DNA from: an uncultured Methanosarcinaceae archaeon
GTDB taxonomy: Archaea; Halobacteriota; Methanosarcinia; Methanosarcinales; Methanosarcinaceae
Direction of reading: 5' to 3'
Assembly: GCA_963847185.1 (NCBI GenBank)
Contig: CAWJYV010000010.1
Coordinates: 256,001-320,000, forward strand
DNA length: 64,000 nt
In this document: positions 14,345-56,269 of the stretch, in pieces
How the letters are laid out: every line of letters starts with the position of its first letter
How positions within the stretch are numbered: the stretch's first letter is position 1
The notes under the pieces: model-generated
What the model saw: only the letters and a program-made list of their open reading frames with translations
Databases searched by the model: none
What the model was told of the DNA's origin: nothing
Translations under genes and position numbers: made by a program

Positions 14345-14377
14345 GTGCGTTGCATTTTTTCACGTTACCTATACCCC
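14345..14377. mobile_element. Probable casposon terminal inverted repeat (element end)
   Basis: Reverse complement GGGGTATAGGTAACGTGAAAAAATGCAACGCAC resembles the M. mazei casposon TIR as recalled (GGGATATAGGTAACTCAAAAAACGCAACG); 400 bp from a casposase tail; not database-verified. Confidence 0.55.
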
Positions 14378-14385
14378 GCGCTAAA

Positions 14386-14428
14386 CAGGCTGTCCGACAA
14401 CTACCAAAGGTAATTGTCGGACAGCCTG
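14386..14428. repeat. 43-bp near-perfect palindrome made of IS1182-like ends
   Basis: CAGGCTGTCCGACAA...TTGTCGGACAGCCTG; resembles CAGGCTGTCTCATAA at the IS1182 end at 59234. Confidence 0.7.
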
Positions 14429-14451
14429 ACATATAGGGGTTTACTGTATAG

Positions 14452-14577
14452 ATGCTTGAAATCGAAAGTGGTACTCAGCCGGTTTGGTATAAAAACAAAT
14501 TATTCATTAGAGTTGGGGCAGGTCAAAAGGAAGTTACAGGGGAAGAAACAAATTCGGTATACAATCTGTTTAAATAA
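14452..14577 (+). pseudogene. C-terminal remnant of a Schlafen/AlbA_2-like protein
   Basis: MLEIESGTQPVWYKNKLFIRVGAGQKEVTGEETNSVYNLFK* fits the PV.Y...F.IR.G.....G.E...Y pattern; 5' part lost. Confidence 0.5.
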
Positions 14578-14687
14578 ACTCCTTAAATAACCCTTTCCAG
14601 TATTGAAATATATCACGAATTTTACTAAGAGGTGGAAAATAATTAGTATTTTACACATATTTTACACCTCCTATTGATGCTGTTTTA

Positions 14688-14791
14688 TTATTTACTGTAA
14701 AATTTGCAATTTCTTTTGATACCGTTTTACTATTTTACTTGTAAAATTTACATTTTACAGTAAAAGTGTGCGCATTTTTACTTTTGGCCTG
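14688..14791 (-). mobile_element. Casposase last codons plus conserved downstream palindromic block (relic 1)
   Basis: GGC CAA AAG TAA (GQK*) followed by TTTTAC-N-GTAAAA blocks homologous to 47450-47515 and 52606-52670. Confidence 0.6.
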
Positions 14792-14875
14792 CTTGACCGT
14801 TAAAAAGGGGATTATCTTAAAATCAGAGTATGTTTAAACTTTATTGACATACTACCTAAAGATAATATAAGGAGT

Positions 14876-15280
14876 ATGATACTATTGAACGAAGCTCTAC
14901 TCATCGCTCCCTGCGGAATGAATTGTTGCATTTGCGTGGCTTACTTAAGGAAGAAAAATAAATGTCCAGGATGTAGAATTGATGCTAACAAACCTATTAC
15001 TCGAGTCATATGCAAAATAAAAACATGTGAAACTTTAACAAAAAACGAATTAACATTTTGTTTTGAATGTGAAAGCTTTCCTTGCAAAAATTTAAAGCAT
15101 CTGGACAAAAGGTATCGTACCAGATACAGTATGAGTATGATTGAAAATTTTGAAAACATTAAAAAACTTGGCATAGAGGAATTTCTAAGAAATGAAAAAA
15201 TAAGATGGACATGCACCGAATGCGGCGGCACAATCTGTGTTCATAAAGGCTATTGTTATAACTGCGGGAGAAAAATTTGA
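14876..15280 (+). CDS. DUF3795 Cys-rich (Zn/Fe-S) protein, copy 1
   Basis: IAPCGMNC..C.AY....CPGC...C.IK.C.....FC.EC..FPC; C-terminal CxxC..C.H...CxxC. Confidence 0.88.
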   Translation: MILLNEALLIAPCGMNCCICVAYLRKKNKCPGCRIDANKPITRVICKIKTCETLTKNELTFCFECESFPCKNLKHLDKRYRTRYSMSMIENFENIKKLGIEEFLRNEKIRWTCTECGGTICVHKGYCYNCGRKI

Positions 15281-15337
15281 ATTAAAAATTTTGCCTCTGG
15301 AGGTTTGACGAACTCTAATTTACCGTATATTATGTGC

Positions 15338-15408
15338 ATAATAATTGCTCACTTCAATTATTGCTCACATAATAATTGCTCACATCAATTATTGCTCACA
15401 TCAATTGC
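15338..15408. repeat. ATTGCTCAC x4 at about 15-16 bp spacing
   Basis: Direct reading. Confidence 0.8.
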
Positions 15409-15494
15409 CTTCACTTCTAATATTTTTAAGGCATAAGGAAACTTTTCATACTGGTGCGGAGATATTAGCTATTTAAATAAAATAAAGGGGACTA

Positions 15495-16097
15495 TTGGAA
15501 TTGGTTTCTTCCAAAATTACTACTGTTTTTTCTCTGATCGCATTTGCAGCTATTCATAGCCTGACTGCGAGCCTGCCCTTCAAACGCTTAATCATGAGGG
15601 TTACTGGTCCCGGAGCAGAAAAGCTCTATCTGCCGGCATACAGCCTCCTTACAGTGCTGACGATATTCCCGCTTGTTTATCAGCTATTTAAAAATCCGGG
15701 GCGGGTTCTCTACAAAATACCTTCGCCCTGGCGCTGGCTCATGGTAGGAGGGCAATTAATTGCCGGAATTCTTGCCCCCATGGCTTTTCGGGATGCTCCG
15801 CATCGGTTCGAAATTCGCTCGCAGCTATCCGGCCCACAGGCTTCCGAAAAAGGTTCCCTGAAAATTAGAGGTATTTACCGCTGGGTAAGGGACCCCTTTT
15901 TACTATCGGGACTGGTCATGATCTGGTTCACTCCCATTATGACCGTCAATCTGCTTATCGTATACCTTTTGACCACTATCTATCTGTTTCTTGGGTCCCT
16001 GCACTGGGAGACAAGGCTGGTGGCGCAATTCGGTGACGAATACCGGGAGTACCAGAAAAGAGTTCACAGAATAATTCCCATTAAGGGGAAGCGTTAA
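15495..16097 (+). CDS. Isoprenylcysteine carboxyl methyltransferase / NnrU-like membrane protein
   Basis: GIYRWVRDP...E.RLVAQFGDEYREYQKRV. Confidence 0.85.
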   Translation: MELVSSKITTVFSLIAFAAIHSLTASLPFKRLIMRVTGPGAEKLYLPAYSLLTVLTIFPLVYQLFKNPGRVLYKIPSPWRWLMVGGQLIAGILAPMAFRDAPHRFEIRSQLSGPQASEKGSLKIRGIYRWVRDPFLLSGLVMIWFTPIMTVNLLIVYLLTTIYLFLGSLHWETRLVAQFGDEYREYQKRVHRIIPIKGKR

Positions 16098-16216
16098 AGA
16101 ATCGATTAATCCCTAGTATAATATATAACGCTAAATATAATTAAAGCACAATTTAACGTAAATCTCGGAAATACCATAAACCATACCCGGGCGAAACCGG
16201 CAGGCTGGCAAAGCTT

Positions 16217-16699
16217 ATGATAAAAGCAGGCAGTTCCTTTTTTCATAATGGAAAACGCGGTACTATTGGCGCTGTAATCTCGCTCAAAGGAGTGCTTTAC
16301 ATGGTCACGGTTTCTCATGTTTTTCGGAAGGAAGGAGATCGCCTGACAGTTGACGGAGATAAATTTGTCGTTACGCGAATCTTGAAAGACCACGATTTAG
16401 CCCTTATAGCTCTCCCTCCTGATACTTCGGTTGAAATCACGGAATTTGGCAGCCCGATCGAACTGGAACTGGCTGAGCTTATTAATGATACCCGTGTTAT
16501 CCATTACTGCAGGGTGGTTAATTCCGGGGCCTTATTGCTTTTTCTGGGCTTCCAGTGTCATGATATGCCGGGACCGGAAGATAGCGGCTCTCCTATCGTG
16601 CAGGCAGGGAAGGTAATAGGAATAATGTCCTCGACAACGCTGGACACCTGCATGGGAATGGCGTTTTCATCTAAATTTCTCCGCAGTCTGGAATTATAA
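16217..16699 (+). CDS. Small trypsin-like serine protease domain protein
   Basis: VTVSHV (His), HDLALI (Asp), EDSGSPIV..GKVIGI (Ser). Confidence 0.75.
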   Translation: MIKAGSSFFHNGKRGTIGAVISLKGVLYMVTVSHVFRKEGDRLTVDGDKFVVTRILKDHDLALIALPPDTSVEITEFGSPIELELAELINDTRVIHYCRVVNSGALLLFLGFQCHDMPGPEDSGSPIVQAGKVIGIMSSTTLDTCMGMAFSSKFLRSLEL

Positions 16700-16773
16700 G
16701 AATGCTAAGACAAGATGCTAAGATGCTGAAAATTAATTTCACATGCGATTTTACTTCATATTTTATCCTAAAT

Positions 16774-17841
16774 TCACTCTTTCTGCAGGTAAAAAGCAAT
16801 TGGAAAGCCAACTAAAGTAGGAATCCAGAATGAAAAAACCCTGTAACTGAGTATGGCAACAACCGCAATCGAACCAGGAACTCCAAGGCCCGTGTAAAGG
16901 GCAGCCATTGTACTCTCCACTATGCCTATTCCTCCCGGAAGGAGAAAAGCCATTTTTCCAAAGAGAAGGGGAAGGCCATATCCCACCAGCAGTATTTCGG
17001 GTCCAATTGGATATCCTGCAGCTATGAAAAAGAAGTAAAGAGTGAGCATATCAAAACCCGTGGAAATACCAGTTCCCAGTGCAGGCCTCTGCCAGCCTCC
17101 ATTACCCAGCATCTCGAGAGCTGCAAACATCCTGCCTGCTAAGATTTCGGCTGGAGCAGGGTCATAGGGTTTATGCAGGATCCGGGAAAAGTACGCTCCT
17201 ATCCTTACAATCATGCGTGTGAAACCTGCCCTGTTTCCTTTTCCCCAGCTGACAGCCAGGAGGCAAAGGCTAAGTAAAGCCAGGATCAGAAGAAAGATAA
17301 AGAACTGAACTGAAGAAAGCTTGTGGACTAATAAGAGATGCAGCATTCCGGCTATAGACAGTAACATTAAAGTTGCATTATTGAAAATTGTGGGCAGGGT
17401 GCCTGCAAGCCCAGAACCTTCTGCGCTGACGCCATGTTTCCTTACCCAGCGATAAGTGGCAGCCGCATTCCCAAAGGTGCCTCCTGCAAGCATTCCTATA
17501 CTTGAAGCTGCGAGTGTTATCAAAACTCCTTTTAACACTGAGAGGCGCTGGTCTACAATTGATACAACCGAATGCATGAGATAGCCAGTCCCCAGGTAAC
17601 TGATGATCTGGGCAAGAGCTGCAAGCAGCACAGCCCATAAAGTCATTGTCTTGATGACGTTAAGGGATGCTTCGACTGAGGCAAGTTGAGGGAGAATCAG
17701 GTGAACGGCCAATCCCGTCAGGATAAGGGTTGGAAGGTAACGGCCTGCCTTTAAAACCAGAGGTGGAGGAGATGTCAAGATTCTATAATTACGTTTTTCG
17801 TTTTTTTGTTCAACTCCATTTTCATTCCTGAAGCTATCCAT
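16774..17841 (-). CDS. Lysylphosphatidylglycerol synthase TM / UPF0104 flippase-like protein
   Basis: PGGIGIVE and YRVFSFWIP motifs; multi-TM. Confidence 0.88.
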   Translation of the reverse strand: MDSFRNENGVEQKNEKRNYRILTSPPPLVLKAGRYLPTLILTGLAVHLILPQLASVEASLNVIKTMTLWAVLLAALAQIISYLGTGYLMHSVVSIVDQRLSVLKGVLITLAASSIGMLAGGTFGNAAATYRWVRKHGVSAEGSGLAGTLPTIFNNATLMLLSIAGMLHLLLVHKLSSVQFFIFLLILALLSLCLLAVSWGKGNRAGFTRMIVRIGAYFSRILHKPYDPAPAEILAGRMFAALEMLGNGGWQRPALGTGISTGFDMLTLYFFFIAAGYPIGPEILLVGYGLPLLFGKMAFLLPGGIGIVESTMAALYTGLGVPGSIAVVAILSYRVFSFWIPTLVGFPIAFYLQKE

Positions 17842-18310: not shown

Positions 18311-18733
18311 GCCAAAGAAAATTGGTTCCAGGCTTTTTGGTTGCTGAGTTTTCGGAGATTTCTTCAAAATATAACATTTCTCTTGTTATCGTTTTTGGAG
18401 AGTTATTCGAAAATTTGCATTTATTATCTCAACTGAAGCTTAGAAAAATAGCTGATGAAGTTTTCAATGAAGGCAAAATGCAGAAAATTTTAGGAAATTT
18501 CAAAAATATTTGTTTGAGTAAACAAGATTGTTTTCAGAAAAAACGATAGCAAGAAAAATTGTGAAAATTGAAGACCTGCGGAAAGTCGGATTATGATAAG
18601 TTTTAGGAAAAAGAGTTGTAATAAAAGAACTATTACCGAAAGGAGTAAAAAAAGTATTTTAAGATAAAAAGTTAAATTTCAGATAGATTATAAAAAATTC
18701 AAAATTTCGGAAATTTCGGAGATTTGAATGGAA

Positions 18734-42621: not shown

Positions 42622-42780
42622 AGAAGCCCAGGATTGCTGCATTTATTCACTGTATCCCCCAATACAGTCTCTTCGACCATTAAGCTCCCCCAAGCATATT
42701 GGTTCGAAGAAGGATCAGCAATCCCAGGCGATTCTTTCATTGTGGTAGATGATTCCCCAGTTATTTCCCAACTCCAGCAT
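42622..42780 (-). ncRNA. Structured non-coding motif, copy B (possible 5' leader of the zinc-ribbon gene)
   Basis: Homologous to copies A and C; conserved AT-rich promoter block upstream. Confidence 0.5.
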
Positions 42781-43151
42781 AACTAATTGGATAAATTATT
42801 TATAATAAATTATATCAAAAATTGTATTTAAACGAAAAAATGTTTAATTCATTTTGTTTTAAGGACATTAAAATTATCAATATACTATAATTTTTCAATT
42901 ATATTTAAAATTCAAACCAGAAACAATCTTTCGTATCGGTTATGATATATATCTCTGAGGCCTTATAAATGTCCAGATTAAGAGAAATAGGGTTCCTCTT
43001 AATCTTTGGGTTGGATCGCGGGTAGGGTTTGAGAATAGGGACTCAAAACTCTACCATCTACTTCTTAGCTAACCAGACTTACTCTCATTTCGTTGAAAAC
43101 TCTATATTTGCTAGAGCTTGTTCTTCTTCTACTCTCAATAGAGTTATACTA

Positions 43152-43218
43152 TTACTGCTTCGTTATCTTACTGCTTCGTTATCTTACTGCTTCGTTATCT
43201 TACTGCTTCGTTATCTTC
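43152..43218. repeat. Tandem 16-mer TTACTGCTTCGTTATC x4
   Basis: Direct reading; no spacers. Confidence 0.9.
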
Positions 43219-43294
43219 CCGTTGTTCGTAGATATCTTTTTTTGGTTTGCAACGGTAAAATGTTATGAGAACGTATGACAAACGAAACAAAAAA

Positions 43295-43489
43295 ACAAGC
43301 AAAAAAGAGGAGGAGAAGGATCTTGTGAGATTCACATTATAGAACGAGTGTAAGGACACGTTATCCTTCCTGCATCTCTAATACAGTCTTCGAAGATTAA
43401 GCGTTCCCAAACATAATTCATCAAAGAAGGATTTGTGACCTTCAGAGGTTGTTTATTGATATTCGAAATCCCAGTTTGATCCCAACTCT
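43295..43489 (-). ncRNA. Candidate ~190-nt sRNA, motif copy C
   Basis: Same promoter block and motif as copy B; ends in CCTTCTCCTCCTC followed by a poly-T tract. Confidence 0.5.
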
Positions 43490-44064
43490 TATTTTTATAT
43501 ATTCATATAAATATATTAAATTAATTATATGAAAAATTGTTTTTAATTAAAACATAGTTTTATATTAAAAAATTTAGTCGTGTACATGAGTCATGGATCA
43601 ATTCTGAAAAAAGAGCACTATTGACTTGTTTGAGAAAAGTACAGAGAGTTTCTATAGAGTATGGTTTTCGACAACTCGCACCCACGACCAAAAATTTAAA
43701 CAAAGATTATTCCATATAAAAATGATTTTCAATTTTAAGTAATTCAATTTATAAAGTTAAACTAATTTATCGATTCCAAAATGAATCCATTGATCGATGG
43801 TAAAATTTGAAAGTCCAGGTTTGTGAGCATATTTTGGGATCGAAACACTATTTCTGAAACAAGTTTAGGAACGTAGTCTATGAAATCTTGTCAAGTCACA
43901 TTTATTTTATATGACTTTATTTTTATATAAAAAGATGCATATTACTAATTTACATATGAGAGTATATCACTCATATGGCTTCAATTGAACTTGATTTGCC
44001 AAAAAACAGAAAACTTATTTAAAATGACATCCAAATCGAATTCACGAATGGGGGAATGTAAACA

Positions 44065-44253
44065 ATGGAAGTAAGTCCTGTGGAAGTACAGAAAGCTTTA
44101 AAGGATATGGACTATCCTGCACAGAAGAAAGAAATAATTCAGCATGCTAAAAAGCATAACGCCAGCAAAGGAGTATTGGACGAGCTTGAAAGAATAGAGG
44201 ATAAAGAATATAAAAATGCGGCCGAAGTGAGCAAAGAGTTTAAAGGCGAATAA
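44065..44253 (+). CDS. DUF2795 domain protein
   Basis: VQKALKDMDYPA.K.EII.HA...A...VL..L..I.D.EY....EV. Confidence 0.88.
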   Translation: MEVSPVEVQKALKDMDYPAQKKEIIQHAKKHNASKGVLDELERIEDKEYKNAAEVSKEFKGE

Positions 44254-44486
44254 AGTAAGAACTTCTATCACTAGCAATCGAACTGCCGGGCTTGTTATAT
44301 GTAGAGACGAGAGGAGATTCTCAGAGAGTCGACTTTCTTTCTATTTAAATCTAATTTTTTGGTTATATATATTCATTGAATTTTCACGTGATTTATTGGA
44401 TTTCTGTGCAGGGTAAAAAACATACTGCTTTTCTTTTATTATACTTTCGGATTTGTGTTATAGCGTATATTGCACCAGCTATTACT

Positions 44487-45831
44487 TTAGTGCCTAGTTA
44501 TTTTCCCATTGCTAAGTTGACGATAAGCGCAACTCCCAGCCAGGGTCATAATCAGCGTGATAGTCCATCCCAGGATGTTGCTCGCCCTCGAGTTGACGAA
44601 TTGACCCATGACGTCTTTTCTGTTCGCTATCATGATTATCAGAGCCATCAGCGGTGGTGCAGCCAGGCCATTCAATGCAGCTGCGTAGTAAAGGGCAGTT
44701 ATCGGGTTGATGTCGAGCCAGTAAAAGGACATGCCTATCAATGTAGATACAACGATCACCATGTAAAACCCCGGAGCCCTACAGGCTTTTTACAAGTCCC
44801 TCCTTAAGTCCGGCAGTCTCTGCTACAGCATATGCTGACGCACCGGCGAGTACAGGGACTGCAAGTGATCCCGTACCGATGATACCAGCCGCGAAGAGTA
44901 AATAGGAGAGGTCGCCAGCCAGCGGGCGTAGAGCTTCAGCCGCCTGCGAAGCAGTCTGAATTGTGGTAATTCCTCCAGCATGTAGGGTGGCAGCAGTAGT
45001 GACGATGATGAAGAACATAATAACCTGAGAGAAAAGCATCCCAATAATAGTATCCAAGTTCATTTCGACTACACCTCGCAGCGTCACCCGAGGTTTTCCT
45101 GCTCCCATATCGGGAATCTGGCCATCCACAATCTCTTCCTCGACCTCCTGAGATGCCTGCCAGAGAATAGGTAAGGGGAGATTGTTGTGCCCAAAACCGC
45201 AACGATATTAAGCAGGTAATCCGCAGAGAAATCGAGATGTGGAACCATTGTGAAGTAAAAAATAAATTCCCATTTCGGGCTGACAATGAGGGCAGCCAAG
45301 ATGTATGAGAAGAGGGTCAGTGTCAGGTACTTAAGGATTCTCGAATAGGTTCTGTATGGAACGAAGACTTCTAGGATGATGATAGATGCCGTTATGAAAA
45401 TCAGCCAGAAAAGAAAAGGCAATCCTAGCAGCATCTGTGCCGAAGAGGCCATTGCACCTAGATCTGCGCCTATATTGATCGTGTTCGCAGTTACAAGCAG
45501 CAAGACTGCTAAGTACAGTACCCTCTTTGAGTAATGCTCAAGGATGACGTCGGCCAGCCCTTTTCCAGTTACCATCCCTATCCGCCCACACATCTGCTGA
45601 ATAACAATCATGAATGGACCGGTGAACCAGACAAGCCAGAGCTGACCGTACCCGAAGATCGCACCTGTCTGCTTATAGGTCGCAATACCAGAGGGATCAT
45701 CATCGGCGGCTCCAGTAATAAATCCGGGACCTATTTTTCCCAGTAGCCACTTCAGGGTTTTTTATGGGCCATAGACCTTTATCCCCTTTGAATTGCTTTA
45801 CTGATTGTAACTCTGATTGTGACGCGGTCAT
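44487..45831 (-). pseudogene. NRAMP family divalent metal transporter with at least 3 frameshifts
   Basis: GPGFITGAADDDPSGIATY, GTTISPYLF and AAEALRPLAG in different frames. Confidence 0.9.
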
Positions 45832-46243
45832 GCTTCCTTCGAGGACAAAAAACCGGCTATAGGGGCAATGAGAATATTCAACCGGATTCCTATTTTAGTA
45901 TTGTTATATCAAGGAGCCTATAGGATATTCATTGGTCATTTGTTAAGGTTTAAAATGTCATTCCTGTCATTTATTTTATGTCACTCTTATATAAAAGGCG
46001 ATTAATAGAATTCTACAAAATTACCTGAAAAATAATGATGCATTATCTGAATCTAATAGAATAACTAAATACACGCCATAACACAAAATCACGCTCAATC
46101 TCACATCTAGAACTCGTTTTTAAAGATAACCAGCAATATTAAAAATTACTTAAGTTAGTAGTTAATTTTAAGCCAAGTTTTTTCTGTCAAATACTCGGAA
46201 TCAGAAAATAGTAATTTTTTCAGCATAATAATAACTTTTGATA

Positions 46244-46552
46244 TTATTGGATTTTACAGGAATTTTGGTATTTCATCCTTATTTTAGTAGATCTTGCTCT
46301 CGAATCTCTAATGAATAATCTGTCAATACGATCCCATACAATAACCCATAAAAATTTAGCATAAGAGAAAGGATAATTCATCCAAAAAACCAATTTCCTG
46401 AAAAGCGATAGATTTCTATAGTCCTCTACCCACATAGATTCGCTTAGAAATCCTCTCCAGACAAGAGATTTTTGCATATGTTTCCATCGCTTGAATATAT
46501 GACCTATTATGAATAAGAAGGTACAAGTGATTGCAAATAATCTTTTAGCCAT
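46244..46552 (-). CDS. Hypothetical basic/aromatic membrane-associated protein
   Basis: GAGGGTGA RBS before ATG at 46552. Confidence 0.55.
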   Translation of the reverse strand: MAKRLFAITCTFLFIIGHIFKRWKHMQKSLVWRGFLSESMWVEDYRNLSLFRKLVFWMNYPFSYAKFLWVIVWDRIDRLFIRDSRARSTKIRMKYQNSCKIQ

Positions 46553-46675
46553 ATTTTTCACCCTCGACGACTCAATAAACTTAATAAAAATGGATGAACA
46601 GGAAAATGCATTAAAAGTAACACATTTCTTACAGATCGTATATTTAACCGAATACAAATGAGTATCTTTTCAAAA

Positions 46676-46849
46676 TTATACTTTCTTTCTTCCCATTTTC
46701 TTTCGTACATACCGTAAAACCCCATAAGAACAACCCAATAGAAGCATAATCTTAAAGGGTTTCTCACCTGCTTTGAGGAGTTCTTCGATTTTTTCATGAT
46801 CGAATTTTGGTTTCTGACCTTTTCTTTTTGGAGGAAATTGGCGACTCAT
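46676..46849 (-). CDS. 57-aa resolvase-type HTH protein (missed by the ORF track)
   Basis: MSRQFPPKRKGQKPKFDHEKIEELLKAGEKPFKIMLLLGCSYGVLRYVRKKMGRKKV; GAGGTGA RBS. Confidence 0.65.
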   Translation of the reverse strand: MSRQFPPKRKGQKPKFDHEKIEELLKAGEKPFKIMLLLGCSYGVLRYVRKKMGRKKV

Positions 46850-47449
46850 TAAGATTTCACCTCTTCATACAATTTACTGTACTTTCAAGCTATGAGGGCT
46901 GATTATTTTATAGGCTCAACTGTAGCTGAAAAAAACTTCTTAGCTTCCATAGACTTGACAGAACCTCAAGGAAACTGAAAAAAATCACTTAGCAATCCCA
47001 TATTATCATTCCCCACAATATAAGCATATCATAACAAAAATACAAAAGCTTTTCGGATTACTTATTAATATAAACTATTAATATTTGTTGTATACAATTT
47101 TTCCAAAAGATTGTGTGCTGAATATTTTGTTCATTCTAGTGGTCTCTGTATATTATTCTCTACTGCAAAAAACGGTTCTGTTGTAAAAATAATAAATATA
47201 GAAGTAAAAATTTAGTTGTCAATGCAATGAACATTTGAAAAGCAGAATATTCCCAAGAAAACAGCTAATGTAAACAGCTATTCCGAATAACTTGTTCATA
47301 AAATTGGCTTCAACAAGAACACATTAGCAGCAGGGAAAGCGCTGAACCCATGTAAGAACTGACATTTCTATTTTATTAATGAATCTAAAAAAACCTTCTG
47401 CTTACATAGTTATTTACATTATGCATCCGTTTTTCAATTGCTCTTGTTG

Positions 47450-47620
47450 TCGTTTTACTGATTTTACCTGTAAAATTTGCACTTTTATATTTTGCAGTAA
47501 AAAGATACACGTTTTTACTTTTGTCTTGAAAAAACGCTTCCTATTTATTCACTATTACAGAACAAGAGCATTAAGAGTAAAGAGCTGATCTGACCTGGCA
47601 TTCTGATTCATGTAATGTAA
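47450..47620 (-). pseudogene. cas1: Casposase (Cas1-like) 3' remnant plus downstream block (relic 2)
   Basis: LHYMNQNARSDQLFTLNALVL then stops; homologous to 52606-52778. Confidence 0.75.
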
Positions 47621-47775
47621 ACATGGAGCGTATCTGTTAAGACTAAAACAGCACATTCAATTTCGGGCGTGGAGCAAGAGTTATGGAAAACTGAAAGCAT
47701 AAGAATCTCTCTACATATTTCATGAAGAGTTCAAATTGTTCTACCGATTCAGGTTTTAGCTTTTTTATGTCTTCA

Positions 47776-47868
47776 TTTGATAAAATTCATGAGTTCCAGC
47801 TTTTTTTCAGCTTTCGCGCAAAGGTCGCTCTACTTCGTCGATCGTGGACGTACCTTGGGTTCAGAAAA
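47776..47868. repeat. Dispersed ~95-bp repeat, inverted relative to 37500-37596
   Basis: Manual alignment. Confidence 0.8.
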
Positions 47869-48010
47869 ATGACTCTCTCTACTCTGCCAGCTGGAAAATA
47901 TAATCTGAAATCAGCTAAAAGGGGCTACTAAAAAATAATCAAAAAAAGATTAAAGAAAGGTCAGAGAATAAGTTTTCTCTGATTAATTATTGGTTGGTTG
48001 TCCCTCTTGT

Positions 48011-49312
48011 TTAGAGCTGCTGGCGCCTGTCAATAATTCTCTTTGCCTTTCCTGCAGTCCTCTCGATACTGCCTTTTTCAAGGAGTTCGACATTTGTACG
48101 GATATTCAGGACGGCTTTGAGTTCATGCTGGACGTGGTTCTGGACGGCTTTGAGGTCGTTGAGTTCGCCTGTGAAGGCATTTTCTTCTAGCTCAACTTCG
48201 ATTGTGAGTTCGTCGAGCATGTGTTTATTGCGGTCGAGGATCAACTGGAAATGTTCGCCGACCTGGGGGATTCTTGAGATTACGTCCTGGATCTGGGAAG
48301 GGAATACGTTGATGCCTCTTACGATAAGCATATCGTCGGCTCGACCAAGGAGACGGGAGATTCTTGTGGTTGTCCTGCCGCAGTCACATTCGGATTCGAG
48401 GAGTCTGGTCATGTCGCCTGTGCGGTATCTGATGTTGCAGAAGCCTTCTTTGTTGATTGAGGTGAGGACAAGTTCGCCTTTTTCGCCTTCTGAAACCTGT
48501 TCTCCGTTTTCGTCGAGGACTTCGACCAGGAAGTTGTCGCTCCAGATGTGCAGACCGTTCTGTTCCTGGCATTCGAAACCGACCCCAGGGCCGAACATTT
48601 CTGAAAGGCCGTAACAGTCATAGGCTTTGAGATTGAGCCTTTTTTCAAGTTGCTTCCGCGTATTTTCAGACCAGGGTTCACCTCCGAAGATGGCTGCTTT
48701 TAAGGAGAGTTTGTCTACAAGGTCGAGTTCTTCTGCGGTTTCGGCAAGATAGAAGGCGTAGGAAGGGGTACAGTGGACTGCTGTTACCCCGAAATCGATC
48801 ATCATCTCAAGCTGCCTGGCAGTATTTCCGGTTGCAGCAGGCACGATCATGGATCCCATCCTCTCTACACCGTAGTGGAAGCCCAGGCCGCCTGTAAAAA
48901 GACCGTAGTTCATGGAATTCTGGACAATGTCGCCTTTCGAAAGCCCTATCATTGTTAGGCTCCGTGCAATCATATCCGACCATGTTTCAATGTCTTTTGC
49001 AGTGTACCCGACAACCGTAGGTTTTCCGCTTGTTCCCGAGGATGCATGAATACGCACTATGTCTTCTTTTTTGGCAGCAAATAGCCCGAATGGATAGTTG
49101 TCCCGAAGGTCCGTTTTCCGCGTAAAAGGCAGTTTACGGACATCTTCGAGAGTTTTTATGTCATCAGGAGTGACTCCAGCCTCCTTAAACTTCTGCCTGT
49201 AGAAGGGAACATTGTCATAGACCAGCTTTGCACTGTGTTGAAGACGTTTTAGCTGAAGTCTCTTCAGTTCTTCGGAATCCATTGTTTCGTATTTCGGCTG
49301 CCAGTAATTCAT
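48011..49312 (-). CDS. paaK: Phenylacetate--CoA ligase
   Basis: HASSGTSGKPTVVGYT, YGLSE, RYRTGD and GRADDMLIVRGINVFPSQ. Confidence 0.95.
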   Translation of the reverse strand: MNYWQPKYETMDSEELKRLQLKRLQHSAKLVYDNVPFYRQKFKEAGVTPDDIKTLEDVRKLPFTRKTDLRDNYPFGLFAAKKEDIVRIHASSGTSGKPTVVGYTAKDIETWSDMIARSLTMIGLSKGDIVQNSMNYGLFTGGLGFHYGVERMGSMIVPAATGNTARQLEMMIDFGVTAVHCTPSYAFYLAETAEELDLVDKLSLKAAIFGGEPWSENTRKQLEKRLNLKAYDCYGLSEMFGPGVGFECQEQNGLHIWSDNFLVEVLDENGEQVSEGEKGELVLTSINKEGFCNIRYRTGDMTRLLESECDCGRTTTRISRLLGRADDMLIVRGINVFPSQIQDVISRIPQVGEHFQLILDRNKHMLDELTIEVELEENAFTGELNDLKAVQNHVQHELKAVLNIRTNVELLEKGSIERTAGKAKRIIDRRQQL

Positions 49313-50147
49313 AAAAAGAACCTTCTTTTATTTTGTAAGACCATTTTTAGCTCATGATGTTTTTATGAACAAACCCTATTCTTACTAAACCTACTCATGC
49401 CATGTCTCTACATGTCACGACATATTAAGTAATCCTATGAATAATATAAAATGTTTGGAAAAATCCTTCTGTACTGTAATCTTCCCACATATAAAGATTG
49501 TTGAATGAATTTTATATTGGAGAGTTAGGAAAATTAGTGGGTTCAAATTAAACCCCTGCATAAACTATAGGATTATAGGGAAGTCAAATTTTTTGTACGC
49601 AAGTGTAAGAATAATGCACAATCTCTTATCTTAGAAAACTGCCTTGAATAAAATTATACTACTTTTAAAATAAAATTTGAATAAAAAGTCTTTTTTGTAC
49701 ATCCTTTAGTAGAGATTTGTAAAGATGATGTACAAAATTGTATAGAGTTGCCCATCTCATCTTAATTTATGTTTTATAAAAACAGATTAATAAAAAATTA
49801 AAGTCTTTTCGCATTTACTCACGAGGGTATCGATAGGAAAAATATGCTTTAAAATAAAGGGTTATCCAGTAGCTATTTTTTAAAAAGCGTTACATAGTCT
49901 TTGGGATGATCATAAACGAAAACAGATAAGCATATTTTATATCGTATTTGCATATCAATTACATCATTTAAAATTAATAGCTTATACAATTGTAAATCTA
50001 TTTTAACAGATCTAAAGAAGAAATTAACTTTTCAAGCAGACCAAAGGGTTCGTCATGCGAATTAGAGGATACTCAGGAGTAAAAATATACTGACAAAAGT
50101 GAGAAATTATTTTTCCATAGTTTTTATCTTAAACCTAGCAACGAAGT

Positions 50148-52301
50148 CTATCTTTTATCATTTTTCAGTTCCTCAAGCTGTCTCTTACAAGAATTAATTA
50201 ATTCTTGTTCCCCATGTTCTTGAGCAATTTTCAGTGCCTTTTCATGACACTCAATTGCTTTTCTCGACTCTCCAAGATCATTATATGCTAGACCCATATC
50301 TCCAAGGTTATCTACTTCTTTTCGCCGGTACCCAAGCTCTTGAGCAATTTTCAGTGCCTTTTCATGACACTCAATTGCTTTTCTCGACTCTCCAAGATCA
50401 TTATATTCTTTCCCCAGATATCCAAGGGTAGCCCCTTCATTTCGCCGCTGCCCAATTTCTTGATAAATTTTCAGTGCCTTTTCATATTTTTCAATTGCTT
50501 TTCTCGATTCTCCACTATTACGGTATGCCATCGCTGTACCCCTAAAAATTGCAGCATGAATTTCGTCTTCTACTTCCCTAACAAAAGGATTTTTAGCAAA
50601 TTGTTCTACGAATAAATTAAAATATTTTAACATAGTATAATAATCAAATTCAAAATGGGGATTCTCACGAAGGATGTTGTCAGCCTGATCGTATTCTTCT
50701 GCCATATTTGCATGGTAAAAGGCTTCAAACGCAAGATTATTATATTCTTTTTCTCCAAGCTCATCTGTAATTAGGAAACGGTAATATTCCATTGCAAGTT
50801 TATGGACTTCTTTTTTATTTTTTAGATCAATATAAGAAAATTTTTCCACTTGATTTTGAAGCCAGTACCTCCCTTTATGGTCAGTTTCCAATAATGATTT
50901 GTCTATCAAATTATCTACAGCATCTATGGGAGTCTTATCTGTAAACATAATTTTAATTGCATTCATAGTTTCAGCCCGACGATAGACTGATATGCGCTCT
51001 AATAGCTCCTTTTCGTTCCCCGCCAATTTATCAAACATTTTTCTGGTTTTCTTGATGGTGCTTTCTTTGAGGTCTCTATATCGAGTCAGATCGTTTAATG
51101 TATCAGATACTCCAAACTTTTTAACAAGGCCTACTAAAAGCTTTAGTGCCAGAGGATGCCCATCTATGTCCTTAGCTAGTATTTTTAATTCGTCAAGCGT
51201 TAAACTATCAAGTCCATTTTTGGCGAGATAATCAACTGCAAAATCCGTTCTCAACCCATTTAGATGCTGTTTCTCCTCCTCAACTACGTCGATAAGACTT
51301 TCTCCATTTTTAAAATTGGGAAGAACACGGCTTGTGATAATGATCTTTGCATTATGGGTACGGTATCGTAAAGAAGAAAAAAGAAGTTCAATTCCCTTAT
51401 CATTAAATTTTGTATTTTCAAGTATAATGCTTAGATCATCAAAAAAGAGCCAGATTTCGCTTCTGTCATTGAGCACGCCTGTGAACTTATCCACATCATT
51501 TTTTCCGGGTTCTCTCCTGTCTGATTTAAATTCTGTAATTTCAGGAGCTCTCATATATGCTGCAAGTTCTTCAAGGATATCACCCAGTTTTGCGTCCTGG
51601 TTATCATAAAAGCTAAACCAAAAAGGTTCTGGGACATTTATAGGTCTGAGATCAACAAGAGCTCTTGCAAGCGTAGTTTTCCCCACACCTCCAATACCAC
51701 TAATAAGTAAAATTTTGTGTTTTTCAAGATATGTAAGGGCTTTTCTTAACTCATCAGCCCTGTTATTAGTAACGAATTCCTTTAACCTTTCAGGGTAAGC
51801 TGGAAGAGCTGAAGAATTATATCGGTGCATAATTTCTTGGTTTTCTGCTTCTTTTCTTCTTTCATCCAGATATTCAATGATTTTGATATACTCATCATCA
51901 GAAGGAGTTTCAATATTGAAAAATGTATTATAGCTTCCCAAGGCGAGATGATTAATATTCTCCACGTTGAGATTTATAGTAAGATCAATTTTCCTTGCTA
52001 GATCACGGTCTTCACTTAGCAATTTCAAGATTCCCTGTTGAAGCTCTTCTTTTGCTATTGTGTCTTCTGAGTTTTTGGACAATTTCTCAAGGGCTATTTC
52101 TATGGGTTTGCTCTTTTTTAACCTTATTTTATCAAATACAATTTTAGCTTTATTTAAAGATTTAGAGCCCAATTTTTCGATACCTTTCTCAAGAAGCATA
52201 TCGTGAACTTTCGCCGTTACAACCTCTCTTTCCGCATAGATGAACGGCAGGGCAGGAGCGAGAACATCTGTTGCTTGATGAGCAAGAGAGATTAGATCCA
52301 T
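50148..52301 (-). CDS. STAND/NB-ARC ATPase with C-terminal TPR repeats (NLR-like)
   Basis: GIGGVGKT Walker A, LFFDDL Walker B, IITSR and GHPLAL; three 40-aa TPRs (120-bp DNA repeats at 50221-50520). Confidence 0.9.
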   Translation of the reverse strand: MDLISLAHQATDVLAPALPFIYAEREVVTAKVHDMLLEKGIEKLGSKSLNKAKIVFDKIRLKKSKPIEIALEKLSKNSEDTIAKEELQQGILKLLSEDRDLARKIDLTINLNVENINHLALGSYNTFFNIETPSDDEYIKIIEYLDERRKEAENQEIMHRYNSSALPAYPERLKEFVTNNRADELRKALTYLEKHKILLISGIGGVGKTTLARALVDLRPINVPEPFWFSFYDNQDAKLGDILEELAAYMRAPEITEFKSDRREPGKNDVDKFTGVLNDRSEIWLFFDDLSIILENTKFNDKGIELLFSSLRYRTHNAKIIITSRVLPNFKNGESLIDVVEEEKQHLNGLRTDFAVDYLAKNGLDSLTLDELKILAKDIDGHPLALKLLVGLVKKFGVSDTLNDLTRYRDLKESTIKKTRKMFDKLAGNEKELLERISVYRRAETMNAIKIMFTDKTPIDAVDNLIDKSLLETDHKGRYWLQNQVEKFSYIDLKNKKEVHKLAMEYYRFLITDELGEKEYNNLAFEAFYHANMAEEYDQADNILRENPHFEFDYYTMLKYFNLFVEQFAKNPFVREVEDEIHAAIFRGTAMAYRNSGESRKAIEKYEKALKIYQEIGQRRNEGATLGYLGKEYNDLGESRKAIECHEKALKIAQELGYRRKEVDNLGDMGLAYNDLGESRKAIECHEKALKIAQEHGEQELINSCKRQLEELKNDKR

Positions 52302-52669
52302 AAAACTCCTCAGATTTTTCTTTAATATTGGAAGCTGGTAAAATAAGTTTTTTTATTTAATACGGTCAGAAATGAATTTTTGGGTTTATTATCCAGAATA
52401 TCTGTTAATTGTTTAACTAACGGACTCTGTAGAAGTCCTTATTTTGATGTAAATTATTTCTTCAACACTTTGTTTGGTTACCCACTAACAGTTTAATTTT
52501 TATTTATTTGACTTGTTCATAGAACTTTTTTGCCCTTAGTACTTCTCAAGACTTCCTTTTGGCAACAGAAAATGTTGTTTGCGCTATATTCCGTTTATTT
52601 TTTTCTATTTTACTGTAAATTTTACATTTTTTTACGATTTTTACATTTTATAGTAAAAGCATACACATT

Positions 52670-53058
52670 TTACTTTTGACCTGAAACCAACGCCTCCCAC
52701 TTATTCACTCTTTCCAGAACATGTGCATTAAGAGTAAACGGCTTATCACTTTTGGCATTTTGTTTCATGTAATGCAAAGTACCCTTAGAAAACCCTAATT
52801 TTCTCCAATCAACATGAGAAATGCTCAGGATCTTTCTCCTAATTTCATGGGAATCAACCCTATTAACCCCAAATTCAGGGCTAACGAAATCTAATTCCTT
52901 GGATTTTCCTGTAAGATTATGGGCTAACTCTCTGGCCTTTATTAGTAATATAGACCCCAGATTGTCTGTTTCTCCTCATAATTTGCAGTCTGATTCATCA
53001 TACTAAAGAACTTATTAGCTACTTTCTTTCTCCCAGGACCTCTTGATCTCAGGTTGTA
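52670..53058 (-). pseudogene. cas1: Casposase (Cas1-like integrase) C-terminal ~130 codons, one frameshift (relic 3)
   Basis: YNLR...KKVANKF...WG/ILLIKARELAHNLTGKSKELDFVSPEF...RKILSISHVDWRKLGFSKGTLHYMKQNAKSDKPFTLNAHVLERVNKWEALVSGQK*; matches the recalled M. mazei casposase C-terminus. Confidence 0.88.
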
Positions 53059-53347
53059 AACACGTTTATTATCAGGCTCCTGAAGGCTGAGAAATGAGTC
53101 GGCCACGCTTTTTCAAACAATACATAACTTATGGAAAATGGTTCAAAGCTCAATCAAGAGATAAAAAATATGAAAAAGAAGTCTTGTTAAGGAATGGCTC
53201 AGGGGAAGATTAAGGATTCAATTACTGGTAGATTTTTTTAGGTAGATCAATGGCAGTAGATATAAAAATAAGGGAAATTTTGAGAAGTGCCGAATTTAAT
53301 AACCTCGAAATATAAGTCGTTGACTATAGAAATATCTAAATACAGAT

Positions 53348-54610
53348 ATGGGGTATAAATTTACTATGATATTTATGAAAGGAAAAAAATGTTTTTTAAT
53401 AGGCTTATTACTTATAGTAATTCTCTGGTCGGGTTGTATTGAATCTACCGGAGAAGCTACCAGTGAATCTGAGAACATAACCATAGGAGCTCTTTTACCG
53501 CTTACGGGAAGCGTTGCTTCTATCGGAGAAGCAAGCCAGACAGCACTTGAAGTATCGACTGAGGATATCAATGGCTATTTCTCGGCACTTGGTTCCGGAA
53601 AGAATGTGAAAGTAATTGTTAAGGATACTGAGAGTGATCCTGCAACTGCTCTGGAACAGCTCAAAGAACTTGATAAAATGGGGATAAGGATAGTTATCGG
53701 TCCGCAGGGAAGCAGTGAGGCAGAAGCCGTTCTGGATTATGCAAACCAGAATGGCATTATTCTTCTGAGTACTGCATCAACAGCCTCATCTTTAGCGATT
53801 CCGGACGATAATCTATTCAGGCTTGTGCCTGACGACACCAACCAGGGAATGATACTGGCCACGTTGATGAATGATGAAGGGATAAAAACTGTAATTCCGA
53901 TATACAGGAATGACCTGTGGGGTAAAGGACTCGCTAGTGACATCGAAAAGAATTTTAAGGCCCTTAATGTCACAGTGCTTGAGGGAGTTGCCTATCAAAC
54001 CGAAAATGTGAACCTTTCCGCAGAAGTAGAGGTACTCAATGAAAAAGTAGTAGCAGCCTCTTCAGAAAATGGGAAGGGATCAATAGCAGTGGTTCTTTGC
54101 TCCTATGGAGAAGCAAGGGAGATCTTTGCTTTAGCCAAGAGCTATCCTGCTCTGTCAAAGGTCAAATGGTATGGCACTGACGGTATAGCGCTAAACAAGG
54201 AACTGATTAACGATGCTAATTCAGCCAGTTTTGCTGCAGCAACCAATGTCAAAGCGCCGATTTACGGATACGTGAGTGAAAATGACATGTGTCAGGTGGC
54301 TGAACCAAAAATTGAAGAACGACTTGGAAGAATTCCTGAGTCTTACGCATTGACTGCATATGACGCTCTCTGGATAGCTACATTTGTTGATCTAGATGCC
54401 ATTTCAGATAATGATAAAAGTGTAAAACTGGCAATGGATGTCATTACAGACACTTATCATGGAATTAGTGGATGGACAATACTCAATGAGAACGGAGACC
54501 GAAAATACTGGGATTACGGCATCTGGAATGTCACTGAAGAAAACGGAACTTACCAGTGGGAAAAGGAGAAAACCGTTATTATGAGGGGTGAAAAGTTAAA
54601 ATCTGTTTAA
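53348..54610 (+). CDS. Branched-chain amino acid ABC-type substrate-binding lipoprotein (orphan)
   Basis: Lipobox WSGC; IGALLPLTG, FRLVPDD..QG and AYDA. Confidence 0.9.
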   Translation: MGYKFTMIFMKGKKCFLIGLLLIVILWSGCIESTGEATSESENITIGALLPLTGSVASIGEASQTALEVSTEDINGYFSALGSGKNVKVIVKDTESDPATALEQLKELDKMGIRIVIGPQGSSEAEAVLDYANQNGIILLSTASTASSLAIPDDNLFRLVPDDTNQGMILATLMNDEGIKTVIPIYRNDLWGKGLASDIEKNFKALNVTVLEGVAYQTENVNLSAEVEVLNEKVVAASSENGKGSIAVVLCSYGEAREIFALAKSYPALSKVKWYGTDGIALNKELINDANSASFAAATNVKAPIYGYVSENDMCQVAEPKIEERLGRIPESYALTAYDALWIATFVDLDAISDNDKSVKLAMDVITDTYHGISGWTILNENGDRKYWDYGIWNVTEENGTYQWEKEKTVIMRGEKLKSV

Positions 54611-54739
54611 TAAATGGTGGTGTCTTCACACCATCAATTATGTTTTTATTATCTGGAATTTTGTCATTTTCTACAAAACTCCTTATTTTCCAATGATCTT
54701 TTATAATAAAGTTTATTTTGTAAAAAATTTGTTTATCCT

Positions 54740-54887
54740 TATTTATGGGAATCAACTCTCTGAACCCCAAATTCAGGGCTAACAAAGTTCAATTCCTTGG
54801 ATTTTCCAGTAAGATTATGGGCTAATTCTCTGGCCTCTAGGAGTAATACAGACCCCCAAGTTGTCTGTTCACCTCATAACTGTCAGT
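54740..54887 (-). pseudogene. cas1: Casposase internal fragment (relic 4)
   Basis: EQTTWGSVLLLEARELAHNLTGKSKELNFVSPEFGVQRVDSH; direct repeat of 52846-52990. Confidence 0.82.
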
Positions 54888-54934
54888 GTGTGTTTAAATT
54901 TTATTGGCATACTACCTAAAGATAGTACAGGAGT

Positions 54935-55354
54935 ATGACATTATTGAACGAAGCTCTGCTCATTGCTCCCTGCGGAATGAATTGTTGCACTTGTGCGGCT
55001 TATTTAAGGAAGAGAAATAAATGCTCAGGCTGTAGAATTGATGCTAACAAACCTGTTACTCGGGTTATATGCAAAATGAAAACATGTGGAACTTTTACAG
55101 AAAACAAATTAACATTTTGTTTTGAATGTAAAGATTTTCCCTGCAAGAATTTAAAGCATCTGGATAAAAGATATCGTACGAAATACAGTATGAGTATGAT
55201 TGAAAATCTTGAAAACATTAAAAAACTTGGCATAGAGGAATTTCTAAATAATGAAAAAATAAGATGGACATGTACCAAATGCGGCGGCACAATCTGTGTT
55301 CATAAAGGCTATTGTTATAACTGCAGGAGAAAAGGCATCGATGATACATATTGA
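54935..55354 (+). CDS. DUF3795 Cys-rich protein, copy 2
   Basis: Close paralogue of 14876..15280, including ~50 bp of upstream sequence. Confidence 0.88.
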   Translation: MTLLNEALLIAPCGMNCCTCAAYLRKRNKCSGCRIDANKPVTRVICKMKTCGTFTENKLTFCFECKDFPCKNLKHLDKRYRTKYSMSMIENLENIKKLGIEEFLNNEKIRWTCTKCGGTICVHKGYCYNCRRKGIDDTY

Positions 55355-55483
55355 GCCTATCCCAGAACCCGAAAACTGCTTTTCGAATCTCGATTTTGAA
55401 ATAATCAGTCGAGCTACTGATCATAAAAGTAGTTATGAAATTCCTATGAATATGGAAACAAAAATTGGTTTTGGGATGAGCTC
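55353..55483. mobile_element. ~130-bp MITE, copy 2
   Basis: GAGCCTATCCCAGAACC ... GGTTTTGGGATGAGCTC terminal inverted repeats. Confidence 0.72.
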
Positions 55484-55566
55484 ATCCATAAATAGAAAAA
55501 AGAAAAAATTGCAGCGAGAATGAGGTTAGTTTTAGTATGATTTTTCCCTTCATTGTTCCCATCCAC

Positions 55567-55881
55567 TCAGCTTCTTTTCAGTAAAAGTCCTGCTTCAAGA
55601 TACTTGATTTCAGTTTCCATTTCCGCAAGTTTCATCCAAGTAAGATAAACGTCTCTTAACAGTAAATAAAATGCAATTCCAACCATCAAATAGAAAGGAA
55701 ATCCAAAATGTGTTCCGATAGCAATCAATCCCAGAAGGAGAACAACAAGATATAAAGGCTCTTTTTTCATATCCATCATGTCTCGCCTCAGAGTCATGGC
55801 TTTAGCTTCACGGTGGCTTATATCTCCTCGTTGCACCATAAACCAAATGTCAAAATCACGTATAACCTTCGAACGTTGCAT
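55567..55881 (-). CDS. 104-aa two-TM membrane protein, copy 2
   Basis: Differs from copy 1 by 4 residues. Confidence 0.75.
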   Translation of the reverse strand: MQRSKVIRDFDIWFMVQRGDISHREAKAMTLRRDMMDMKKEPLYLVVLLLGLIAIGTHFGFPFYLMVGIAFYLLLRDVYLTWMKLAEMETEIKYLEAGLLLKRS

Positions 55882-56269
55882 ATTTCCTCATTGATTAGGA
55901 ATAAATAGTCAGCATACAAACCGCGGCCCCGGCTATACGGCTATATATCCATTCAAATTTATTGCACCAATACTATATATTTCAAGTCCTGTAAGTAGTA
56001 CAAAAGCTCCAGCATAAGCTTGTTTTAGACTCATCTTGTCTCGCCTCCTCCCTAGAACTCAACTTCCAATTAATGATTTTCATCATATTAACAAATGAAA
56101 CAAAAAAGGGAAATGCGCTCGCACCTGCCAGAAATGCTCTATAATTAACAAACGCCAATCCAGCTGTGGTAGTTAATAACCCACAGTTAAAACACCGCAT
56201 GGAATATCCAAAAGTAACAAGCAATGTGATACATCTCAACAGTTCTTTTGCCTTCATGCTGTCACCTAC

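Follow-up and report, generated by a model that had tools for sequence, protein, structure and literature searches.

Casposon relics at tRNA-like sites in a Methanosarcinaceae genome

How did four fragments of casposase, all on one strand and all reduced to the 3' end of the gene or the DNA just beyond it, come to lie in a single stretch of archaeal DNA? The stretch, called the window throughout, comprises 64,000 nucleotides of contig CAWJYV010000010.1 (positions 256,001 to 320,000, forward strand) of an uncultured Methanosarcinaceae archaeon (GCA_963847185.1). Casposons, transposons driven by Cas1, are presumed to be ancestral to the CRISPR adaptation machinery, and, to our knowledge, few of their natural insertion sites and decay products have been described. 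A first reading made from the sequence alone had taken the fragments for a scattered casposon graveyard, left either by repeated integration and decay or by non-autonomous derivatives that move cargo genes. The answer reached here is that, very probably, at least four to five family-2 (Methanosarcina mazei-type) casposons were inserted at tRNA-like sites and decayed to an arm and a casposase 3' stub. The genome to which the window belongs is coded G000 (assembly 99.8% complete) and its relatives G0xx within a genus set of 59 genomes; the nearest relative, G009, is only 81% complete. Ordinary genes are about 75-85% identical in DNA between relatives, with a genome background of roughly 80%.

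Identity of the four casposase fragments

The fragments are referred to as relics 1 to 4:
52673-53058, minus strand: relic 1, casposase residues ~277-405, with a frame change near 52954-52975 and no start codon
54745-54873, minus strand: relic 2, casposase residues ~306-348, with an internal stop (tblastn E down to 1.4e-18)
47431-47623, minus strand: relic 3, casposase residues ~371-392 (47558-47623, with stops) and the post-casposase non-coding block (47431-47557)
14600-14791, minus strand: relic 4, the final casposase codons (about 14778-14791) and the post-casposase non-coding region with ~43-bp repeat modules

All four minus-strand fragments were confirmed as 3' stubs of family-2 casposases or as the non-coding DNA just downstream of them. 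They lie where the sequence-only reading had placed them and are mutually diverged as it had described, the copies being 74-84% identical to one another. Relics 1-3 match the casposases of six to eight reference elements by tblastn. Relic 1 includes a 101-residue stop-free stretch (52673-52975) whose C-terminal string is exactly the one previously quoted as the Methanosarcina casposase C-terminus; in the PDB alignment it is identical to the end of 6opm_A, the M. mazei casposase with bound integration product (PMC6977970). Its homology runs on to 53058 in a different frame (tblastn E 1e-44 to 1.5e-53). The coding part of relic 3 is recovered by tblastn at E 1.6e-5 to 7e-5 and, together with its non-coding block, shows 82.5% DNA identity over 194 nt to an intact element of G014, while the non-coding part of relic 4 (14600-14786, roughly 190 nt) is 78-79% identical over 153-155 nt to intact elements. 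Because relic 2 is 91.7% and relic 1 81% identical in DNA to the casposase of G009, these two relics derive from different source elements, in agreement with the proposal of repeated integration and decay.

Relic 1 alone gave no match in Pfam or NCBIfam, and the family assignment came from longer paralogous stubs. Genome-wide mapping with the relic 1 stretch located ten places in G000, including two longer open fragments. A 215-aa paralogous stub matched Pfam Cas_Cas1 (1.2e-29, profile positions 186-282 of 283) and NCBIfam cas1; among PDB sequences it matched 6opm_A at 1.5e-105 over residues 211-419, followed by a CRISPR Cas1 at 6.4e-17, and the tblastn check of relics 1-3 likewise upholds the original call of casposase. 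The surviving 3' parts match 6opm residues ~277-419 and the reference casposases, that is, a Cas1-family casposase with a C-terminal HTH extension. No casposase N-terminus was found in the window or the genome (nothing before residue 174 in G000), nor was any PolB fragment in the window (tblastn) or in the G000 genome. Since this genome is without an intact casposase or casposon PolB, the copies in the window are immobile now. A Pfam Cas1 search of G000 returned three partial hits only, all casposase-type, and by this search the genome, 99.8% complete, seems to be without any CRISPR-type Cas1. Contig C10 of G000 also carries three same-strand casposase stubs within 4.2 kb (423955-428165).

Intact elements in relatives and the integration site

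Intact elements in relatives share one layout. Inside the first terminal inverted repeat (TIR) comes an arm, 1.7-5 kb long and variable in cargo, then a non-coding region rich in repeats, and then casposase, the ~320-aa gene, the 212-aa gene and PolB; a second arm leads to the other TIR. Casposase is not the terminal gene, as the cargo arm of 1.7-5 kb lies between its stop codon and the TIR; casposase and PolB both point outward, with their 3' ends beside the arms. PolB is present in the intact G014 element, which shares its arm and TIR type with the window copies; that of G006 was recognised by Pfam (PF00136, 3.7e-7), and the ~320-aa and 212-aa genes gave no Pfam match; the figure legends of PMC4779613 label them HTH-HEAT and HNH. 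The post-casposase non-coding region consists of one to four ~43-bp tandem modules, variable in number and each with a short palindrome, which could be binding sites; examples are seen at 14600-14777 of the window and at about 16000-16360 of locus L033. This region was also considered as the end of the element and rejected, there being no inverted repeat opposite it and the true TIRs lying 4.3 kb further out in G012.

A TIR profile built from eight aligned TIRs (nhmmer) was used to delimit complete elements in G006, G012 (two), G013:C17, G014 and G049. In G012, the full-length copy beside tRNA-Leu(CAG) starts, outward from the tRNA, with a 14-bp CGCA-led repeat followed by a TIR of ~55-60 bp, and the inverted partner of this TIR lies 13 kb off, 4.3 kb past the casposase stop. 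Perfect 14-bp CGCA-led target-site duplications (TSDs) by tRNA or tRNA-like 3' ends were found for four elements (G012b, G013:C17, the G006 hot-spot element described below and G014); for G012a, G009 and G000:C4, where only the tRNA-side end was read, a CGCA-led 14-mer is followed directly by the TIR. The 14-mer of G012a is the MetMaz-C1 TSD given in PMC10359463. Wherever the tRNA-side end of an element was read, it comes immediately after a tRNA 3' end or a tRNA-like remnant. These casposons insert site-specifically just past the 3' end of a tRNA or tRNA-like sequence, making a 14-bp CGCA-led duplication. Insertion into the 3' coding end of a resident casposase was also considered; it found one 20/20 match (G012a), one 11-nt match (relic 4) and none at three other ends, and the reading was not used. 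G014 has two adjacent casposons, and G049:C54 (L066/L067 2922-23078) holds a natural tandem array of three head-to-tail casposons with about 10 nt between TIR envelopes.

Set against this layout, the window contains parts of several elements, named E1, E2, E3 and E5, and the host genes that border them:
49536-49560, plus strand: tRNA 3'-end-like remnant (T-arm-like motif) found by alignment with relatives, the sole such motif in the window
49557-49570, plus strand: degenerate TGCA-led TSD-like 14-mer between the tRNA remnant and the TIR, positional equivalent of the CGCA-led TSDs in G006, G041, G014 and G012
49571-49639, plus strand: TIR of half-casposon E1, outer half degenerate, from the TIR alignment (nhmmer E 5.6e-11, copy in the model)
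50148-52301, minus strand: intact STAND NTPase-TPR gene, 717 aa (Pfam TPR_12, nSTAND6, NB-ARC), casposase-side arm of E1
52574-52672, minus strand: post-casposase non-coding region of E1, from alignments; junction with the arm shared with G014
53094-53186, plus strand: first 31 codons of the 212-aa casposon gene (tblastn 58-68% identity, E 1e-9 to 2e-8, against seven reference elements)
53348-54610, plus strand: intact periplasmic-binding-protein-like gene, 420 aa (Pfam ANF_receptor 3e-34, Peripla_BP_6 1.8e-29)
46199-47097, strand not assigned: E3 arm with a conserved ~105-aa open reading frame (ORF), 91.5% identical over 902 nt to G013:C17 DNA directly inside a TIR (L070 5355-6249; TIR 6341-6406)
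14322-14376, minus strand: well-preserved solo TIR, element E5, interior towards lower coordinates, aligned with seven other TIRs (nhmmer E 2.4e-15, copy in the model)
14377-14390, plus strand: CGCG-led TSD-like 14-mer adjoining this TIR, resembling the TSD of the G014 element and overlapping a 43-nt hairpin (14386-14428)
48011-49312, minus strand: AMP-binding (PaaK-like) gene (Pfam AMP-binding_C_2 8.8e-30, AMP-binding 1.1e-15), 80-87% identical in the genus genomes listed
54883-55354, plus strand: DUF3795 copy b with upstream region (Pfam PF12675 1.8e-8), distal edge of the hot spot, 86-89.5% identical to orthologues
14823-15280, plus strand: DUF3795 copy a with upstream region (Pfam PF12675 2.3e-8), linked to a syntenic block at 15.4-27.2 kb

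The four relics are real, and to that extent the picture of a graveyard stands; they are not randomly scattered, and the stubs are not element ends. Relics 1 and 2 share a single site-specific hot spot, bordered by the PaaK-like gene and DUF3795, and relic 4 is the DUF3795-side edge of a second copy of this hot spot. On the PaaK-like side of the first copy, the remnant at 49536-49560 aligns with the 3' end of an intact tRNA-Met of G041 (ARAGORN) and with the tRNA-like remnants that G006 and G060 have at this position. In these three relatives the junction runs from the tRNA or remnant through a CGCA-led 14-mer into a TIR; in the window, likewise, the remnant directly precedes the TSD-like 14-mer and the E1 TIR, which occupies the same position as the TIRs of G006, G041 and G060. 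The remnant is presumably the "leader" of the integration site. The sequence-only reading had seen neither PolB, nor a casposase N-terminus, nor a tRNA; all three absences held under the searches, ARAGORN finding no tRNA anywhere in the window, and the alignment adds the tRNA 3'-end remnant that had been overlooked.

The interval between the PaaK-like gene and DUF3795, or its edges, was inspected in 11 of the 59 genus genomes. A TIR and/or a casposase stub is present in eight of them (G000, G006, G041, G060, G073, G066, G042 and G012, the last with a weak match of 43% identity). The search for empty sites and TSDs in syntenic relatives, suggested at the outset, was productive on both counts: three genomes (G046, G004 and G013) have no casposon DNA in the interval, the host blocks of G046 lying 14 nt apart, and G006 carries there an intact 10.7-kb casposon with a perfect 14-bp CGCA TSD. 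Behind this intact element, on the DUF3795 side, G006 also retains an older casposase stub of 197 aa.

Within the hot spot, E1 reads in order as TIR, STAND-TPR arm, non-coding region, relic 1 and the start of the 212-aa gene. Relic 1 and the 212-aa gene start, on opposite strands, are separated by 35 nt in the window and by about 2 kb in intact elements, and this fusion implies an internal deletion of ~2 kb in E1 that took the 5' part of casposase and the ~320-aa gene. Relic 2, which joins host DNA directly at about 54880 in the upstream region of DUF3795 copy b, represents a second element, E2 (casposase residues 306-348), of which the binding-protein gene between relics 1 and 2 (53348-54610) may be the arm. 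Tandem use of one target is the likely origin of E1 and E2. A degenerate TSD at 54869-54882 was considered and rejected, as this stretch is casposase coding sequence. E3 consists of its arm followed by the non-coding block and relic 3, with no detectable TIR in the window copy; the PaaK-like gene stands between relic 3 and the hot spot, relic 3 being about 0.4 kb past the 3' end of this gene. At the second hot-spot copy, relic 4 and then DUF3795 copy a follow about 200 nt beyond the solo TIR, and the junction of relic 4 with the DUF3795 upstream region is common to G041 (78% over 119 nt, E 6e-22); relic 4 is thus old, or was inherited along with the site. A perfect tandem duplication of a 92-bp unit (13750-13933) was observed within the remnant behind the solo TIR.

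The window therefore holds two single TIRs and no element with both, and the TSD-like 14-mers (TGCA-led at 49557-49570, CGCG-led at 14377-14390) are one-sided only. Three TIRs are recognisable in the whole G000 genome, two of them in the window, the next nhmmer hit having E 0.14. A half-casposon on contig C4 of G000 (11185-16948) consists of a tRNA end, TSD, TIR, a 5-kb arm and casposase residues ~218-407, and it occupies the site of a full element in G009.

Core loss, cargo and rival explanations

The full-length casposase query had matches in 51 of the 59 genomes. Among the matches listed, 11 rows in 7 genomes span residues 1 to at least 403. The fragments at 50% identity or more among the matches listed (rows transcribed by hand) number 95. 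Of these, 70 extend to at least residue 390; 79 are confined to the C-terminal half and 4 to the N-terminal half. PolB was matched in 22 of the 59 genomes (not in G000), and 31 of 35 fragments lie in its C-terminal half. The 5' break points of casposase at 28 loci are spread from about residue 148 to about residue 378. Since the 3' ends of both genes adjoin the arms and both genes show the 3' bias, deletions would take the centre of the element and spare the arms, and the pattern suggests that casposase and PolB relics keep their arm-proximal 3' ends as the core is lost. An internal pseudo-end at about residue 229, making mini-casposons, was tried as an explanation and rejected, because the break points are spread over the 28 loci and several of the starts at 229-234 are frame changes.

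Applied to the window, this reading would have two elements (E1 and E2) as a tandem pair at the hot spot bordered by the PaaK-like gene and DUF3795, E3 (arm and relic 3) beyond the PaaK-like gene, and relic 4 with the solo TIR at the second DUF3795 copy, 40 kb off. Deletions would then have removed the transposition and replication core, leaving the arm and the adjoining casposase 3' stub; they may have arisen by abortive excision, gap repair or ordinary deletion. Internally deleted DNA transposons, such as Ds from Ac, also keep their ends and adjacent sequence and lose the middle with variable break points; unlike these, the casposon relics usually retain one end, with an intact cargo gene.

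The cargo of E1 can be traced to a complete element. Over 2468 nt, window positions 50211-52658 share 96.5% identity with an arm in another species (G014), where it belongs to a casposon bounded by TIRs and flanked by a TSD; because of this the STAND-TPR gene is genuine casposon cargo, as one option of the sequence-only reading had it. DUF3795, which had been listed there as cargo too, must be struck off: it is adjacent to the PaaK-like gene in the relic-free relatives G046, G004 and G013, a synteny named in advance as grounds for refutation, and because of this adjacency both are host genes flanking the integration site. The TPR part of the window gene contains three 120-bp tandem repeats (50211-50570; 88% and 64% identical to the first), and its G014 counterpart is longer (762 aa vs. 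717 aa) owing to extra repeat sequence. PADLOC, with which 48 casposons have been annotated (PMC11551731), gave weak hits only for the STAND-TPR protein and no match for the binding protein, the ORF of the C4 arm or the ORFs at 46244-46657 and 13206-13604. A casposase-TIR arm of G009 beside tRNA-Leu(TAA) (C55, L043, 5053-8760) carries a complete Lamassu set (LmuB 6.2e-91, LmuC 4.2e-16, LmuA 3.4e-51), genes that Pfam names ABC-3C components; the G006 arm encodes an Mrr-like nuclease and a weak TIR-domain hit, and that of G012a a DUF4145 protein. From the Lamassu (G009), Mrr-like and TIR-domain-like (G006) and STAND-TPR (G014, G000) arms, and the intact STAND-TPR gene beside a dead stub, one could tentatively regard Methanosarcina casposons as tRNA-targeted shuttles of defence genes, whose hosts shed the costly core and keep the arm, so that half-casposons would be domesticated defence islets and the stubs scars; this is a speculation with the odds against it. 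Arms would have been retained through useful cargo.

Several points weigh against decay of at least four to five inserted casposons. E1 has one recognisable TIR, and its TSD-like 14-mer is unpaired and TGCA-led, not CGCA-led. E2, E3 and relic 4 gave no TIR, and it is by divergence and position that they are assigned to separate elements. The tRNA remnant is recognised neither by ARAGORN nor by Rfam, which returned nothing for the whole window and chance-level hits only for the hot-spot region. The nhmmer model contained both window TIRs and the C4 TIR, which makes their E-values circular; independent support consists, for 14322-14376, of a fuzzy match (4 mismatches in 26) to the TIR core of the G012 tRNA-Leu casposon and, for 49571-49639, of alignment and position only. 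The E1 stub shares only 78% identity with the G014 casposase, against 96.5% for the arm; from this difference arms and cores would appear to be mosaic, or arm and stub may have separate histories. In the genus statistics, 140 further matches exist beyond those listed, frameshifts have divided some single loci over several rows, related genomes do not count as independent samples, and detection favours the conserved C-terminal HTH over the N-terminus. Casposase stubs, finally, are about three times as many as PolB stubs, which a symmetrical loss of the core does not explain.

Could the units of stub and neighbouring gene instead be non-autonomous derivatives, mobile with casposase supplied in trans? 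TIRs and TSDs are all that mini-casposons require, in vitro as well as in vivo (PMC10359463, PMC6977970), the STAND-TPR gene and its non-coding junction are shared at 96.5% with a distant species, and the E3 arm is 82-93% identical in many genomes. Each unit of the window, however, has at most one of the three TIRs of the genome, no paired TSDs were found, each arm is single-copy in G000, and the genome offers no source of casposase. Relatives that have no relics carry DUF3795 and the PaaK-like gene in synteny, as host genes, and the G014 arm sits in a full TIR-bounded element, accounting for the high identity without a mini-element. Mobile derivatives, the other option of the sequence-only reading, are therefore improbable. 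Much the same low probability is given to domestication of the C-terminal stubs themselves, whereby an HTH-only peptide or a non-coding region would block integration or regulate the cargo. The 3' bias of kept casposase sequence across the genus is strong, the HTH domain is essential for integration (PMC6977970), two other G000 stubs are open (186-215 aa from the first ATG; 241 and 186-191 aa as open frames), and the junction at relic 4 has stayed conserved since the lineage of G041 diverged, all of which domestication would accommodate. It is less easily reconciled with the four window stubs, which lack a start codon or carry stops or frame changes, with the several stops in many stubs of relatives, or with the 5' break points, which have no common boundary; PolB, moreover, has the same 3' bias, fitting linkage to the arms rather than selection on the HTH.

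Least credible, with a probability close to nil, is an origin of the fragments as CRISPR Cas1 pseudogenes from a lost CRISPR-Cas locus. Pfam and NCBIfam call the longer stubs Cas1, and no other Cas1 is present in the genome, yet the match to the 6opm casposase far exceeds that to the best CRISPR Cas1. The stubs also carry a C-terminal extension past the Cas1 profile that is specific to family-2 casposases; the 212-aa gene stub, casposon TIRs and arms adjoin the relics; and no repeat array was found in the window (cas2 was not part of the search). Decay of inserted casposons, rather than any of these three explanations, is the reading followed below.

Known casposon remnants and the host surroundings

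Casposon debris of this kind is already known, and the present findings do not overturn current understanding. Solo-TIRs, tandem arrays with a single TSD, mobility in M. mazei and targeting of tRNA-Leu and intergenic sites with CGCA-led 14-bp TSDs were reported in 2016 (Krupovic et al. 2016, PMC4779613), and in vivo excision and tandem mini-casposon integration at the MetMaz-C1 TSD in PMC10359463. The M. mazei family-2 elements (MetMaz-C1, MetMaz1FA1A3-C2 and the source of 6opm) share with the relics the casposase sequence and integration at tRNA or tRNA-like 3' ends; TIR length in the relatives falls in the published range of 31-59 bp, and the 14-bp CGCA-led TSD and the core gene order seen in them are shared as well. 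The window copies differ in being without PolB, the catalytic part of casposase, one or both TIRs and a paired TSD. Their site, the tRNA-like remnant between PaaK and DUF3795, is not the IR1 site; the MetMaz-C1 TSD belongs, in G012, to the G012a element at another place in that genome. The solo-TIRs of M. mazei mark specific targets, as remnants, in strains that carry no full element, and the TIR at 14322-14376 with its CGCG-led 14-mer is one of this kind, whereas most window relics are half elements (TIR and/or arm with a casposase 3' stub) and some stubs have no TIR. E1 and E2 resemble the tandem Methanosarcina arrays in their reuse of one target and their same orientation as neighbours, but both are stubs, with neither the shared TSD nor the inner TIRs remaining.

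The accessible main text of PMC4779613 makes no mention of casposase pseudogene stubs. In the literature searched, nothing was found on Methanosarcina casposon pseudogenes or casposon-borne Lamassu, nor on 3' stubs as the commonest casposon relic, the PaaK-DUF3795 hot spot or Lamassu and STAND genes as casposase-side cargo, some of which the supplementary lists of PMC4779613 may hold. The window thus adds a further tRNA-derived hot spot used across the genus, a route of decay in which the core is gone and one arm and a 3' stub are retained, an intact defence-like cargo gene outliving its transposon, and casposon relics at synteny breaks. For annotation, such stubs are easily overlooked or mis-called as Cas1 pseudogenes, and recognising them also helps surveys of casposon cargo.

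The synteny breaks lie at relics 3 and 4 and at a stub of contig C122 in G009. The order found in relatives runs from a 391-aa gene through Z, TPR, Y, PaaK and DUF3795 to block R. In G000, block R and DUF3795 copy a lie at 14.8-27.2 kb, and PaaK and DUF3795 copy b at 48-55 kb, on a 14.9-kb segment (41123-56005) between 656-bp direct repeats that are 91% identical (40482-41137 and 55347-56005). Copy a is 89-91.6% identical to orthologues in six relatives, and the two copies are 90.5% identical to each other over 452 nt, which fits an old duplication and a transfer alike. The 14.9-kb segment is absent from the G009:C148 contig (L040), where the counterparts of 37.6-41.1 kb are joined straight to those of 56.7-58.2 kb; it was either inserted in the lineage of the window or deleted in G009, an assembly of 81% completeness.

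Other repeats and fragments accompany these genes. A repeat of ~125-135 bp resembling a miniature inverted-repeat transposable element lies at 40480-40617 and 55344-55485 and has dozens of copies in the genome. Further dispersed families occur at 9626-9733 and 47659-47721 and at 18350-18590 and 35371-35483, and a family resembling insertion sequences at 34440-35150. An Nramp-like fragment (44512-45755; 175-aa ORF, profile positions 26-176 of 357), to which contig C1 has a counterpart of 73.6% identity, is probably a pseudogene.

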